A stretch of DNA of 61,717 bases from an uncultured Bacteroidales bacterium (lineage in GTDB: Bacteria; Bacteroidota; Bacteroidia; Bacteroidales; P3), in NCBI GenBank assembly GCA_946542135.1, contig CAMNKG010000001.1, positions 1 through 61,717 of the forward strand, given 5' to 3'. Below are positions 9,802-15,866 of the stretch, piece after piece (position 1 is the stretch's first letter; every line of letters starts with the position of its first letter). Made by a program: the position numbers and the translations under genes. The notes beneath the pieces are model-generated. The model was not told the origin of the DNA, ran no database searches, and saw only the letters and a program-made list of their open reading frames with translations.

Positions 9802-9840
9802 AAAAAAGTGCCCCACAAAGTTAACTGTGGGGCGCTTTTT
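9802..9840. terminator. Bidirectional rho-independent terminator
   Basis: GCCCCACA (9810-9817) pairs with TGTGGGGC (9826-9833). An A-run precedes the hairpin and a T-run follows it. It lies 27 nt beyond the stop of the 9867..11924 gene. Confidence 0.7.
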
Positions 9841-9866
9841 CTACGGATGAGTATTGTCAGTAGAAC

Positions 9867-11924
9867 TCATTGTTTCACGAAGGCGCGCGAGCCGTAGCGG
9901 TCGTTGCTAGCGAGGCGCAGCAGGTAGCGTCCGGCGGGCAGACGGCGCACGTCGAGGGTGGACTGCGGACCGTGCAGTTGCTGTCGCATCACGCAGCGTC
10001 CGGCGGCATCGAAGACCTCGGTCAGGAGGGCTTCGTCGGTGCCGGTGGATATGGTCAGCAGGCCGTCGGTGGGGTTGGGGGCAAGGCTGAAGGGCAGGTC
10101 GCCGACGGCAGGCACCGCCGTGGCGGTGTCGCAGTAGAAGATGGCGGTGAAGATGGTGTCCTGGGTCACCTGGTGCACGCGGGTGGCGTAGAGCACGCCG
10201 TCGCTCCAGGTGGCGAAGTGGCAGTGGCTGTTGGCGGGCTGCGCCGACAGGGTCACGTAGGTGCCCTGCAGGTAGCTGCCACTGCCGGTCACGGAGCCCC
10301 ACCGGTCGTAGTTGGGCTGCGCCGTCACAGTGCAGTGGCGCAGTGTCATGGCCGAGACGGGGTGCCACTCCGAGTAGCGCTGGCTGTGGGGGCACCAGTT
10401 GCGTATGCTTATCTCGTAGGTCGTTCCGGGCAGCAGGCCGTCAATGAAGAGGGAACACACCCCGTTGCTGTCGGGCGTCAGGGGACCGTAGGTCACCGCC
10501 TGGCTCGAGTCGGCGCCATGCGCGACGACGAGCACCTCGCTGCTACCGGCCTCGGCGGGCACGGTCCAGGAGAGGTAGATGCTGGAGTCTGTCACCACGG
10601 GCTCGCCGACGTTGAACTTGGTCGGGCAGGCCTCGGGTGTGGAGAAGGAGGTGTCGACGGTGCCGCTGAAGCACTCCTGGTAGCGGCACCAACCGGTGAC
10701 GTAGACGTCGTAGGTGCTCAGCTCCTCGAGGCCGCCGATGCGCCATTCGCCGCCCACGATGCTGTCAACCACCGTGCCGGTGCCGGGCACGAAGCCCGCC
10801 GGGCCATACTCCAGCCGGCAGAAGTCAACTCCCACAGGCACGTCCCACCGCACCACGGCGCTGTCATACTGCAGCACCTCCACCCTCAAGGCATGGGGAT
10901 CCATGCAAGGCGGCGGCGCTGTGATGGCAAAGGGCCCGCCCCAACTGTGAGAAACATAGAATGAACTATCTAACCAGTGGTAGGAGTTGTAAGGTGGCGG
11001 AAAGTTCCCTGTATTTATTGGAATATAATCGTAACGATTCGTTATACATGGGTTAGCGTATGCAGGCCAAATGTATGGGCTATGGCCTGGTCCTATATGA
11101 GTTCCTTGCCAGAAGCATCTTGATTCCGAAGGATCAGCTAAATATAAGATTGCATTATCGCTTACTGTAATAACTGGCCTTTTTGCAGTCATGGTGACGC
11201 CTGTCCAGAATGTATCACTTAAGATTACAGGTTCGTCAAAATACACCTCTATTGTCGGAAAATCGAAGGTGTAATAGTGTGCAGGTCCTGTAGGCCAGTT
11301 GCCTAAATTTGGGAATCGGAATATGTTTCCCGTCACGGTATTTACTCCAAATCGTATTCGAGTCGAATCTACTATTCGAGGCATGAGAAAAGTAAAGCCT
11401 GTAGGATTGTCGGAAGGACTAGAGTTGTACTCTGTATATAATGACGGTTGTATTGTATCCTTATCAAGAATGTAGATATACCGATTGGGACCCGAATAAA
11501 AATCTATCACTTCCTGCCATCGTTCGTTGTACAGACTGTCATCCAGTTCTACATCTGGATATTCTCCATAACCAAAAATCGGCCAACCACCTAAGGAATC
11601 AGGTTGCCGGTGGAGTGTGGCTGTTATTGTACAAATGGGTATAGATACGCCATACACACTACGGACGGCGTTGCCGCGGTCTGGTAAATATCGTTGCAAG
11701 GCAACTCTGCTAAGCGAAGAATTATTCGGTGATATGATATTAGTATAAGGAGATGCTGTTACAACAAAAAACGGAGGATATATATAATTATCTAAAGACA
11801 TAGAATCTTTGTTGTATGGATTGAACAGATACCGCTGCGACGTGGGGTATTCCTCTATCTGCTGCGCCATAGCCGGCATCAAAGATATCAGCATCAAAAC
11901 TATTATGATATATATTCTTTTCAT
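9867..11924 (-). CDS. T9SS-exported protein, paralogue A (unknown N-terminal head, 2 FN3-like modules, Listeria/Bacteroides-repeat-like module, type-A C-terminal sorting domain)
   Basis: 685 aa with signal peptide MKRIYIIIVLMLISLMPAMAQQ. The FN3-like segments are VVRWDVP...YDVYVTGWC and IYLSWTVP...YEISIRNWC. The repeat-like segment is GSVTGSGSYLQGTYVTLSAQPANSHCHFATWSDG. The CTD reads FSLAPNPTDGLLTI...LPAGRYLLRL...AFVKQ. Confidence 0.85.
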   Translation of the reverse strand: MKRIYIIIVLMLISLMPAMAQQIEEYPTSQRYLFNPYNKDSMSLDNYIYPPFFVVTASPYTNIISPNNSSLSRVALQRYLPDRGNAVRSVYGVSIPICTITATLHRQPDSLGGWPIFGYGEYPDVELDDSLYNERWQEVIDFYSGPNRYIYILDKDTIQPSLYTEYNSSPSDNPTGFTFLMPRIVDSTRIRFGVNTVTGNIFRFPNLGNWPTGPAHYYTFDFPTIEVYFDEPVILSDTFWTGVTMTAKRPVITVSDNAILYLADPSESRCFWQGTHIGPGHSPYIWPAYANPCITNRYDYIPINTGNFPPPYNSYHWLDSSFYVSHSWGGPFAITAPPPCMDPHALRVEVLQYDSAVVRWDVPVGVDFCRLEYGPAGFVPGTGTVVDSIVGGEWRIGGLEELSTYDVYVTGWCRYQECFSGTVDTSFSTPEACPTKFNVGEPVVTDSSIYLSWTVPAEAGSSEVLVVAHGADSSQAVTYGPLTPDSNGVCSLFIDGLLPGTTYEISIRNWCPHSQRYSEWHPVSAMTLRHCTVTAQPNYDRWGSVTGSGSYLQGTYVTLSAQPANSHCHFATWSDGVLYATRVHQVTQDTIFTAIFYCDTATAVPAVGDLPFSLAPNPTDGLLTISTGTDEALLTEVFDAAGRCVMRQQLHGPQSTLDVRRLPAGRYLLRLASNDRYGSRAFVKQ
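10054..10937. repeat. 884-bp block identical to 13578-14461 (copy 1)
   Basis: Translations in three different frames are identical between the two copies over this span. The first flanking mismatches fall at 10053/13577 and 10938/14462. Confidence 0.85.
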
Positions 11925-11956
11925 GATTCTTTTATTTTACGATGTCGCTGTAAGAT

Positions 11957-13228
11957 TCAGTCGTTGCAACCTTCTAATAATGCTTCGGAATAGGTATAAA
12001 TATGTGTAATGAGAAATTTTTTTTGTATTGAATTTATTATTTGAGGTGGATTTGATGGTGAATTGAATTTTGGTCCAGGCATTACTTTTGTCTGATCATA
12101 TAACAAACAATGGGATGCCGGGCCAATCACATTTCGTGTGTAGAAATAGTGATTCTCTCCAATTGGTTTTTCTACTGCAATATAATAGCGGTTTCCATTC
12201 TTGTCAATACTATTACAATAATCATCGAGGACATATTCCATTTTGGCAATGTAAGAATTATTGTAAGGATTCAGGTAATAGACGTAAGAGTGGTTGTTGG
12301 TTATTTCGTTGGAACGTTGCAGCATCAGTAGCATGTTTAACGAGTCAAGGTATACCATCTCGTCAGGGAAGGATTTTTGTGGTATTAACACATCTTGTGT
12401 TTGTAGATTTGTAAAATTAGTCATGTCAACTGTGTATATTCGACTCATGAATTGGTTGTTAGGAACATCATATACTGTGATGTTTAAAGTTATGTCATCA
12501 CTTTTCAGATGCTGTATTCCAACTCCAGTGTTGAGCATGAAATCATTGAATCTAATGTAATTAATTAAACACAAATTACTCTTTTGGATTTTACCTAAAT
12601 ATATTTCACTGTTTGAAATATCCACGGCTGAAGCCACAATATAATTGTCCGTGACATCAAAGCCTGTAATCTCTATCTGTTGTTGAGTGTATGGATAATA
12701 ATCAACATATGTTCCATCTATTTTTGCTATTATGAGATAAGTGGACTGTGTTATTCCACTAGGCGTTAAAGTGTTGCCTCTCATGACAGCCACTGTATGA
12801 TCATCTGAGGGATCCGTATAGACTTCAATTTTTGTTAAATAGCCGGGATTGATATAAGGAACAGTGTCGTACCATATAGTATCAGTGGGCATATAGAATG
12901 CCGGCATAGGCATGTAGCCGAACACGCCGTTTTTGCCTTTCAATCCGCAAAAGAACAATGTATCGTTAAGGATTTGGAAGTCCCTGATAATTAAGCCTTG
13001 GGGAAGCTTTGCTGACCTGCAAAAGCTTCCTTGGTTGAATAGAAGAAAGACGTTGACATTTCCAGGTTCATGGTAGGAGACATAGCTGTCATTGGCCTTG
13101 TAAGTCCTTACAAGGTTGACAGTGTTGCCGGTGGGGGCATTGGGCGTCTCCAGGAAAAGAGTGTTTTGTGCATCGGTTGCAGCCACATGGGCGATGCATA
13201 GAATCAAAAATAAGGCTATCTTTTTCAT
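11957..13228 (-). CDS. AT-rich secreted protein of unknown family (first gene of the cassette)
   Basis: I chose the start at MKKIALFLILCIAHVAATDAQ (signal peptide); the longest ORF extends to 13273. The protein is about 423 aa, Y/N/I-rich and predicted beta-rich. It has no CTD and no recognisable motif. Its stop lies 33 nt upstream of the start of cargo paralogue A. Confidence 0.75.
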   Translation of the reverse strand: MKKIALFLILCIAHVAATDAQNTLFLETPNAPTGNTVNLVRTYKANDSYVSYHEPGNVNVFLLFNQGSFCRSAKLPQGLIIRDFQILNDTLFFCGLKGKNGVFGYMPMPAFYMPTDTIWYDTVPYINPGYLTKIEVYTDPSDDHTVAVMRGNTLTPSGITQSTYLIIAKIDGTYVDYYPYTQQQIEITGFDVTDNYIVASAVDISNSEIYLGKIQKSNLCLINYIRFNDFMLNTGVGIQHLKSDDITLNITVYDVPNNQFMSRIYTVDMTNFTNLQTQDVLIPQKSFPDEMVYLDSLNMLLMLQRSNEITNNHSYVYYLNPYNNSYIAKMEYVLDDYCNSIDKNGNRYYIAVEKPIGENHYFYTRNVIGPASHCLLYDQTKVMPGPKFNSPSNPPQIINSIQKKFLITHIYTYSEALLEGCND

Positions 13229-13270
13229 AATGAACTGTTTAAATTGATAATTGGGTTTTGTATTATTTTG

Positions 13271-13302
13271 CAAATATAAAAAATAATCGAATAATTTGCA
13301 AA
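13271..13302 (-). promoter_or_regulatory. Bacteroidota-type promoter of cassette unit 1
   Basis: On the minus strand, TTTG (plus-strand 13299-13302), 20 nt of spacer, then TATATTTG (plus-strand 13271-13278). It sits about 45 nt upstream of ATG 13228. Confidence 0.6.
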
Positions 13303-15666: not shown

Positions 15667-15708
15667 AATGAGCTGTTTAAATTGATAATTGGATTTTTTA
15701 TTATTTTG

Positions 15709-15740
15709 CAAATATAAAAAATAATCGAATAATCTGCAAA
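15709..15740 (-). promoter_or_regulatory. Bacteroidota-type promoter of cassette unit 2 (copy of 13271-13302)
   Basis: The same TTTG-N20-TATATTTG arrangement (plus-strand CAAATATA at 15709-15716 and CAAA at 15737-15740). Confidence 0.55.
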
Positions 15741-15764
15741 ATTTCGAAAAAAATGCAAAATATT

Positions 15765-15792
15765 AAAAAAGTACGCCGGTTTTGGCGTGCCT
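15765..15792 (-). terminator. Terminator copy belonging to the decayed third unit
   Basis: Homologous to 13329-13358, with a weaker stem (GGCACGCC/GGCGTAC) and an A-run at 15765-15770. Confidence 0.4.
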
Positions 15793-15824
15793 ATAGTCTA
15801 AAGCGTTGTTTCTCTTGCGATAAC

Positions 15825-15866
15825 TTACTGTTTTACGAAGGCGCGCGAGCCGTAGTGGTCGTTGCC
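15825..15866 (-). pseudogene. 42-nt 3'-end remnant of a third T9SS cargo gene
   Basis: TTACTGTTTTACGAAGGCGCGCGAGCCGTAGTGGTCGTTGCC matches the last 13 codons plus stop of paralogue B. Homology stops abruptly at 15867. Confidence 0.6.

Follow-up and report, generated by a model that had tools for sequence, protein, structure and literature searches.

A stretch of 61,717 nucleotides (nt) from an uncultured Bacteroidales bacterium (contig CAMNKG010000001.1), referred to here as the window, carries at 9.8-15.9 kb a tandem array of a two-gene cassette. The first gene of the cassette encodes an exported protein, the partner; the second encodes a type IX secretion system (T9SS) cargo, which consists of a variable N-terminal head and a near-constant tail made up of a stalk and a C-terminal sorting domain (CTD). 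Partner and cargo very probably form a genuine, conserved and undescribed module. Neither the partner nor the head falls in a curated family, and both protein families are undescribed. The finding belongs with those T9SS cargos that have a genetically linked partner of their own, built here from two families not described before; the layout itself has a known analogue in the KLIKK-peptidase/potempin system. An earlier note, made from the sequence of the window, had proposed a dedicated partner-plus-cargo T9SS module and regarded it as a candidate for an undescribed system. The first proposal is borne out by the pairing described below, while the second holds for the two protein families and not for the layout.

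The pairing is kept well beyond the window. Wherever a fetched locus (numbered L001 onwards) extends downstream beyond a partner homologue, the gene that comes next on that strand encodes a T9SS cargo. Wherever the partner is intact the two genes are separated by 12-47 nt (the window, L001-3, L005, L008, L009 twice, L010, L011/12, L028, L033, L034 and L036); L037 holds a partner fragment only, with the cargo about 440 nt downstream. The genome scan used alignment A1, A5 being too divergent. All paired cargos match the tail profile and most also match the head profile, at E 1e-8 to 1e-94; those of L028, L034 and L037 match the tail profile alone. Partner identity to the window is 78% in L001-3, 40% in L008 and 29% in L005, and pairing persists at 23-29%. 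It is thus conserved in at least 10 independent loci, as would be expected of the dedicated pair that had been proposed.

The partner is tightly linked to the cargo family yet not obligatory in cis, because several cargos stand alone. Cargos of about 600 residues in L004 and L007 (by FKBP-asd-gldH) and the cargo of L006 (after ftsZ) have neither a partner nor a partner remnant. L009 (1335-10934), from another Bacteroidales genome, carries a larger array, in which a cargo, a partner truncated at its N-terminus (349 aa), a second cargo, a full partner (442 aa) and two further cargos follow one another; the same order recurs in L010, and the arrangement has therefore been found in two samples. 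The genes neighbouring the cassette are housekeeping genes which differ between loci, with no carbohydrate-active enzyme (CAZyme), SusC/D or regulator gene nearby.

The ~600-aa subfamily (L004 8001-9737, L007 994-2796) occupies a conserved site near FKBP, asd, gldH and uvrC. The L007 copy is preceded by another CTD-ending gene (267-342), indicating that this subfamily also occurs in tandem copies.

Anatomy of the array

All features of the array are read on the minus strand, and coordinates are window positions. Besides its promoters and hairpin terminators, the array holds two intact cargo genes, one intact and one internally deleted partner gene, and what is left of a cargo 3' end. Each unit has one promoter and one terminator. 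Unit 1 opens with a Bacteroidetes-type promoter, TTTG-N20-TATATTTG (13271-13302), a motif found nine times in the window against 0.33 expected by chance. It is followed by the partner gene (11957-13228, 423 aa, ATG at 13228), cargo1 (9867-11924, 685 aa) and a terminator (9810-9833) with a 9-bp stem, including six GC pairs, and a T-run. This last terminator follows the terminal array copy and is locus-specific, being unlike the inter-unit terminator in the junction alignment (A6). The gap between partner and cargo1 is 32 nt, and not 33 nt as first reported.

Unit 2 has an intact TTTG-N20-TATATTTG promoter (15709-15740), a partner pseudogene (15497-15666), an intact 685-aa cargo2 (13391-15448, with its tail tract at 13388-14468) and the inter-unit intrinsic terminator (13335-13358), a hairpin and T-run which is kept in L001 and L038. 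The pseudogene, delimited by tblastn and self-BLAST, retains 29 N-terminal codons followed by a stop (15666-15580) and some 30 diverged C-terminal codons (15586-15497), with about 1.1 kb lost internally. Upstream of unit 2 lie a weakened copy of the inter-unit terminator with a 5-bp stem (15773-15788) and, at the array boundary, a 42-44-nt remnant of a cargo 3' end (15822-15866; GNDHYGSRAFVKQ and a stop codon), which self-BLAST finds as a 44-nt copy at 15822-15865 and which is also seen in the junction alignment.

Self-BLAST reveals how unevenly the units resemble one another. Positions 9864-10944 and 13388-14468 are 98.15% identical over 1081 nt without a gap, and the promoter and partner 5' end (13142-13432 and 15580-15866) are 93% identical, whereas the 5' halves of the cargos (11197-12003 and 14724-15540) reach only 70% in a gapped alignment.

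Much of the anatomy given in the earlier note stands. The open reading frame (ORF) listing reproduces its exact 3524-bp period for both starts and stops; ORF and motif scans recover the promoter type, the hairpin terminator, the signal-peptide partner of about 423 aa and the 685-aa cargo; and the similarity searches agree that unit 2 keeps its cargo while its partner is reduced to end fragments. A third unit of promoter, terminator and 42 nt of cargo 3' end had also been described. Its terminator and remnant are there, whereas the promoter assigned to it drives unit 2.

Likewise, no recombinase or transposase was found among the 30 window ORFs scanned or the Pfam-annotated collinear genes of L001; a mobile element, integron cassette or shufflon would be expected to have one. 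Nor did a silent-cassette donor system, an invertase or a phase-variable repeat turn up.

An AT-rich inverted repeat of 17 nt brackets the unit 2 promoter (15694-15710 and 15754-15770). The repeat (16-17 nt; TTTTTTAATATTTTGC ... GCAAAATAATAAAAAA) has an equivalent at about 9886-9975 of L001, is shared by the two strains and may serve as an operator. An invertible promoter, and with it phase variation, was considered and rejected, as the repeat brackets only 43 nt including the promoter and every copy has the same orientation; such an interval looks too small for an invertible segment. Opposite the cargo tails run two antisense ORFs on the plus strand (9870-10964 and 13367-14476; 364 and 369 aa), which are rich in Gly, Ala and Arg. 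Similar ORFs lie opposite the GC-rich tails in L001, L003 and L005, and all are taken to be by-products of composition and not genes.

The partner and cargo families

The partner starts with a type-I signal peptide that has Q in the +1 position, and its C-terminal end has a conserved Cys. A word-based search of 5.8 billion proteins returned six relatives, while a profile search raised this to 795 representative clusters at E<=1e-3 (182 at E<=1e-10), nearly all of 430-470 aa. Pfam gave no match for any of 34 sampled members, and neither NCBIfam nor a sequence profile search of the PDB gave one for the partner. The type-I signal with Q recurs in 112 of 130 family members and a lipobox-like sequence in six of the 130; the window partner itself has no Cys at the cleavage site. 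A Cys stands within the last four residues in 104 of the 130, often paired with one soon (about 10 residues) after the signal peptide. This combination of signal and Q, rare lipobox and terminal Cys pattern suggests a soluble exported propeller, possibly stapled by a disulfide. An intermolecular disulfide of the PorK/GldK type, a lead taken from PMC12635249, was set aside, since the N-terminal Cys of many members fits an intramolecular ring staple better; it is kept as an idea of low probability.

The propeller assignment comes from structure prediction. AlphaFold2 (AF2) models the partner as all-beta over residues 39-332, with a predicted local distance difference test (pLDDT) of 70-90 and a predicted template modelling score (pTM) of 0.65. 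Searched against the PDB with Foldseek, this model gave 78 matches at E<=1e-3, and all of the top 50 listed are beta-propellers, at identities of 13% or less. The highest target-normalised TM-scores (TMt) among the matches belong to the seven-bladed GH145 proteins BT3686/BACINT_00347 (0.48-0.53), the ulvan lyase LOR107 (PL25; 0.46) and a PL42 rhamnose-glucuronate lyase (0.45). A match to the xenosiderophore-binding lipoprotein XusB was more ordinary (TM 0.40-0.44), and the propellers of nucleoporins, clathrin and oligopeptidase B score equally well. The partner is thus predicted to be a beta-propeller by fold class, with no specific relative assigned. It would have about seven blades, although the blade number and the C-terminal 90 residues are uncertain in the model.

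The cargo begins with a signal peptide (residues 1-21, 11862-11924 in cargo1), MKRIYIIIVLMLISLMPAMA|QQ, in which inspection shows a hydrophobic core, an AxA-type site and Q at +1. A Q in this position, giving an N-terminal pyroglutamate, is the subject of the Q-rule (PMC10653852). The head (residues 22-340, 10905-11861) is followed by a stalk of two Cys-containing FN3-like modules, at residues ~341-440 (10605-10904) and 443-508 (10401-10598), then by an InlB B-repeat (residues 541-596, 10137-10304) and the type A T9SS CTD (residues 615-685, 9870-10082). Pfam and NCBIfam identify the second module as fn3 and the B-repeat as Flg_new_2/InlB B-repeat in both cargos. The CTD is matched by TIGR04183 of NCBIfam (34.1 and 39.9 bits in the two cargos, cutoff 23, residues 615-685) and by PF18962 (Por_Secre_tail) of Pfam (31.3 and 31.5 bits, cutoff 27). 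The B-repeat-like module and type A CTD had been read correctly from the sequence, and so had the second of two proposed FN3-like modules; the first has no Pfam match and weakly resembles the second (E 3e-4). Searched with profiles of its own family, cargo1 matches the head hidden Markov model at E 1.6e-94 and the tail model at E 4.5e-115.

The head has proved less informative. Residues 1-340 have no Pfam or NCBIfam match, and PDB searches by sequence profile, Pfam on all 20 members at E<=1 and PADLOC gave nothing consistent; no peptidase or toxin family was detected in it by Pfam, NCBIfam or PDB profile. The claim that head and partner lie outside known curated families is therefore upheld across Pfam, NCBIfam, the PDB profile and PADLOC. 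The same word-based search returned four relatives of the head, a number raised to 21 by the head profile. All 21 share the architecture of head, FN3-like modules and CTD; 'hypothetical' or 'FN3 domain-containing' is as far as their names go, and those few that are named derive from metagenome-assembled genomes of Bacteroidales. All heads tested are homologous to one profile. The best-conserved motifs are the mature N-terminus, Q-x-x-E-x-YPTSQRYLF (QQIEEYPTSQRYLFNPYNKDS in the cargo itself), VYGVxIP and PTxEVYFDxP...DTFW, with WGGPxAIxAPPPC conserved at the junction of head and stalk. The residues that are invariant in the head alignment are aromatic and acidic, and no His, Ser or Cys is among them. 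Of the structural checks that had been proposed, prediction followed by Foldseek placed the partner among the propellers; for the head, the prediction itself failed. Both the partner family and the head are found in rumen and gut Bacteroidales.

Allelic divergence and cassette junctions

Positions 1-9837 of L001 align with window positions 36325-26493 at 98.76% identity and, because of this flank identity, L001 is assigned to the same species as the window. Against this background the cassette is exceptionally divergent in part. The core genes clpX and ftsW are about 99% identical in nucleotide sequence between the two, with a synonymous divergence (dS) of 0.014-0.034, and the cargo tail is 96-98% identical (dS 0.12), whereas the partner is about 80% identical (dS 0.69) and the head about 60% (dS 1.3). 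The two heads within the window are further apart still, with 57% amino acid identity, a dS of about 2 and a ratio of nonsynonymous to synonymous divergence (dN/dS) of 0.18; their tails are 98% identical in nucleotide sequence (dS 0.037), with 20 differences of which 19 fall within codons 624-686 in the CTD. Head dS overall ranges from 1.3 to 3.0, and dN/dS is 0.1-0.3. Five cargos, at L009 and the unlinked L011, likewise have near-identical tails and divergent heads.

Because head dS is saturated while that of tails and core genes is low, the heads and partner are old alleles under purifying selection, and the tails are held alike by gene conversion, in a pattern of concerted evolution or recombination. 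The same values contradict the view that a unit had been duplicated, diversified in the head and pruned; recent duplication of a whole unit followed by rapid change of the head would not leave heads saturated in dS beside such low values in tails and core genes. A diversity-generating retroelement or recent positive selection was rejected as well, since the differences are spread over both head and partner, dS is saturated and dN/dS stays below 0.3.

The boundary between variable and constant parts is also one of base composition. The homogenised tract of stalk and CTD in cargo1 (9864-10944) begins at WGGPFAITAPPPC, the head/stalk boundary, and has a GC content of 63-70%. GC at third codon positions (GC3) is 0.28-0.50 in the cargo head, 0.84-1.0 in the tail from about codon 350, 0.39 in the partner and about 0.70 in host genes. 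Head GC3 is also below tail GC3 in L003, L004, L005, L006, L008, L009 and L011 (0.3-0.5 against 0.6-1.0), although base composition differs among them, and the partner genes share the AT-richness of the heads. This GC3 step is a property of the family and not a one-off chimera, because it is present in all members examined across genomes. It could be caused by GC-biased gene conversion in the tails, or by a low-GC variable block of the kind found at antigen loci; low-GC hypervariable O-antigen and capsule loci offer a comparison.

Recombination may also occur within the partner gene. The partner allele of L038 (P0001) is identical to that of the window over about 350 residues, and its last ~70 residues (window 11957-12180) are nearer the L001 allele, which suggests an exchange inside the gene beside the variable head. 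L038 comes from an independent sample and has an intact junction that leads from the CTD through terminator, promoter and partner into the head, with 93.8% identity to window 13489-11807. The array junction has thus been seen independently.

A further trace of the cassette lies downstream of clpX (26630-27886). This scar (26491-26526, minus strand) is a hybrid 16-codon mini-ORF, MRHSLLRS-GSRAFVKQ (MRHSLLRSGSRAFVKQ) and a stop codon, which sits between clpX and a PorE-like gene and then has its own terminator. In L001-3 a full cassette lies directly downstream of clpX, after a degenerate 16-codon remnant of a cargo end. The cassette is present at the clpX site in one strain and absent there in another. 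In the junction alignment the 5' half of the scar resembles the L001 remnant, its 3' half is identical to the terminal cargo end (...GGCTCGCGCGCCTTCGTGAAACAA), and the stop codon is the exact point at which it parts from the cassette. Such a product would be expected if the upstream remnant had recombined with the true 3' end of the cargo; alternatively, it would be a cassette entry site read in reverse.

A remnant of this sort (15822-15866) also opens the window array, at an unrelated site. The last ~40 nt of the cargo gene form the junction at each of the two sites seen in this species, and the cargo 3' end is the sole repeated junction in the alignment. Because the same remnant bounds the cassette at the array and at clpX, the cargo 3' end appears to be the recombination junction of the cassette. 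A decayed third unit, as described in the earlier note, is one possible reading of the upstream end of the array; the remnant at the clpX site points to a recombination junction.

The gene adjoining the scar (23594-26260, minus strand) encodes an 888-aa protein with TPR, PD40, CarboxypepD_reg and OmpA domains. These make up the PorE domain set (PMC12773672), and the protein is a putative PorE-like T9SS component. T9SS core genes such as sprA/sov and porKLMN are absent from the window, whose PorE-like gene is a candidate for part of the machinery.

For an empty site corresponding to the array locus, exact look-ups of the two flanking proteins gave no record, and a metagenome scan with the flippase gave relatives of 74% identity or less. 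In these relatives synteny stops after a conserved 73-aa ORF and none has a cassette there, which does not amount to a clean empty site. The ORF (9383-9604 in the window, minus strand; MLISIITILTLLLILFRVLRGESFRD...) is found 3' of the flippase gene in nine related metagenome loci at 68-86% identity, and is probably a real gene for a small membrane protein. TatD and DUF2520 genes (window 46149-47709; L006 8449-10040) are close to the cargo, an Rnf subunit gene and an oadA-like gene in L006; a distance of 30 kb separates them from the Rnf and oadA-like genes of the window. In L026 the oadA-rnf segment is inverted relative to the flippase, and the oadA-rnf/flippase region appears to be prone to rearrangement between lineages.

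Possible function and precedents

The account of the cassette that we favour, tentatively and by analogy with known T9SS cargos, is that of a surface-display protein with a periplasmic propeller that binds its head. It builds on the operon anatomy, export signals, pairing, fold class and allelic pattern set out above, and its remaining steps are conjectural. A single promoter would drive expression of the Sec-exported soluble propeller and then, 32 nt on, of the T9SS cargo, up to the terminator. The cargo would cross the inner membrane via Sec and the outer membrane via the T9SS; its CTD would then be removed and the protein anchored to anionic lipopolysaccharide (A-LPS), as is known for type A CTD cargos (PMC9143113), with the stalk holding the head off the cell. 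The partner would stay in the periplasm and bind the head, maybe through the conserved motif at its mature N-terminus, acting as a holdase or guardian until export, in parallel with the potempins that bind KLIKK peptidases; unlike them, it may act in trans or be dispensed with. The head would be an exposed binding module on its FN3 stalk. Units would be gained, lost and duplicated by homologous recombination through the tails and 3'-end repeats, with no dedicated recombinase nearby, and frequency-dependent selection would maintain the variable partner and head, as with a surface adhesin or antigen that varies.

Several points weigh against this account. Surface anchoring is carried over from Porphyromonas and Flavobacterium. 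The AF2 model of the head, built from a 20-sequence alignment, is unusable at a pLDDT of 34, which makes the choice between a binding and a catalytic role for the head a guess. Cargos occur with no partner, namely cargo2, two of the four cargos of L009, the ~600-aa subfamily of L004/L007 and that of L006. Finally, the 3'-end remnant upstream was looked for and not found in L005, L011, L028, L033 or L036, and it has been rejected as a family-wide feature.

A bolder version, which we consider rather unlikely to hold as a whole, sees in the partner family a periplasmic adaptor or guardian specific to its cargo, which would be the first for type A T9SS proteins and would dock the invariant mature N-terminus. 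Partner and head would then be an exchangeable, co-evolving block shuffled among strains and loci via the stalk and CTD and the last ~40 nt of the gene, with frequent gene conversion of the constant block raising its GC3 above the genome average, as a GC bias that can be seen within single genes.

The closest analogue of the layout appears to be the KLIKK-peptidase/potempin system of Tannerella forsythia, in which each KLIKK gene is preceded by an ORF for its cognate inhibitor, the C-terminal regions are near-identical and a close relative lacks the array (PMC4404884, PMC9890683). As in that system, a partner ORF lies directly upstream of a T9SS cargo, with co-transcription predicted here from the one promoter and one terminator per unit; the C-terminal region is near-identical among paralogous cargos, which diverge in their N-terminal functional domain; and the genes are arrayed at a locus which is present or absent between close relatives. 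The proteins themselves differ. Potempins are outer-membrane lipoproteins of 98-132 residues with an oligonucleotide/oligosaccharide-binding (OB) fold or an eight-stranded barrel, and share no sequence similarity, whereas the partners here are predicted soluble propellers of about 430 aa that belong to a single large family of homologues. The KLIKK heads comprise peptidases from disparate families, while the heads here form a single family without a peptidase signature. Inhibition by potempins has been demonstrated, whereas inhibition or binding by the partner would follow from the analogy, and some of the cargos here, unlike those of the KLIKK/potempin system, have no partner.

A dedicated partner, encoded beside one particular cargo and required for its handling, is also a feature of type B CTD proteins and their PorP/SprF proteins, as in SprB-SprF and PG1035-PorP (PMC9143113, PMC12635249). 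In the present case the CTD, matched by TIGR04183, is of type A; the partner has no Pfam match, is predicted to be a soluble propeller and not a FadL-like outer-membrane barrel, and is encoded upstream of the cargo, where PorP/SprF-type partners are encoded downstream. Multi-copy variable surface-protein families resemble the cassette in their constant anchor, held alike by gene conversion, and variable exposed part, old alleles of high dS, low-GC variable part and strain-to-strain differences in content. They differ in that here no donor system, invertase or phase-variable repeat came to light, every unit carries a promoter of its own and the variable block includes the partner gene.

Among other explanations, the cassette might be a two-component module for the capture of carbohydrates or nutrients. 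The propeller would be a periplasmic glycoside hydrolase, lyase or ligand binder, the surface cargo would capture or cleave the matching polymer, and the pair would be linked by substrate. The best TMt values do belong to seven-bladed CAZymes and binders (GH145, PL42, ulvan lyase), and the hosts are rumen and gut Bacteroidales. These matches, however, are at identities of 13% or less and generic propellers score as well, the neighbouring housekeeping genes vary by locus and include no CAZyme, SusC/D or regulator gene, and few partner residues are invariant (D83, G95, T193 and two Cys). The allelic divergence within the species is also extreme, which would be unusual for catabolic enzymes. We regard this explanation as improbable.

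A polymorphic toxin-immunity cassette seems a distinctly doubtful alternative. In it, the T9SS would deliver the head as a toxin or lytic enzyme, the periplasmic propeller encoded upstream would be the cognate immunity protein or inhibitor that shields the producer during passage of the cargo through the periplasm, and the arrays would be islands of effectors and immunity genes. The potempins set a precedent, with the inhibitor gene upstream (PMC9890683), and the partner is exported to a compartment that the cargo crosses. Polymorphic toxins, including the TANFOR class of Bacteroidetes (PMC7073777), share with the cassette a modular construction, in which a variable head and variable partner lie beside a constant delivery tail, as well as an adjacent 'cognate' gene, arrays and content that differs from strain to strain. 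The polarity is nevertheless reversed here, with the variable part at the N-terminus and the partner upstream, and the heads are all homologous where swapped, unrelated toxin domains would be expected. A cargo may persist alone: cargo2 remains intact although its partner has been deleted, the four cargos of L009 are accompanied by only one full and one truncated partner, and whole subfamilies are solitary. No toxin or peptidase domain was matched in the head, which lacks an invariant His, Cys or Ser, PADLOC gave no match, and dN/dS is 0.1-0.3.

It is very improbable that the near-identical 1.08-kb tails have joined unlinked loci chimerically during assembly, or that unrelated partner and cargo genes are adjacent by chance, for although the short-read contigs L001, L002 and L003 all end inside the tail repeat, where assemblers evidently struggle, the junction recurs in the independent L038 sample at 93.8% identity, the order of the L009/L010 array in two samples, the tails differ at 20 positions and have 3' contexts that suit an internal and a terminal copy, and the pairing is kept in at least 10 independent loci down to 23% identity.

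The module is widespread in uncultured Bacteroidales, with a function that is inferential at present. Read as a periplasmic propeller that binds a surface-displayed head, it would bear on how T9SS cargos are handled before export. Dedicated partners are known for type B CTD cargos (PorP/SprF; PMC9143113), while the precedent found for a type A cargo is confined to one species, in the potempins. A propeller family of some 800 clusters, nearly always encoded directly upstream of a type A cargo in the loci sampled, would generalise cargo-specific handling in the periplasm. The cassette is among the most strain-variable loci in genomes that are 98.8% identical, and is likely to be a determinant of adhesion, of recognition by phages or predators, or of recognition by host antibodies in uncultured Bacteroidales. 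For genome evolution, it joins old alleles to a constant region that evolves in concert, in cassettes whose gain and loss take place at a ~40-nt junction within a coding sequence, with no recombinase nearby. The step in GC3 from about 0.35 to about 0.9 within one ORF may represent a natural experiment on GC-biased gene conversion in bacteria.

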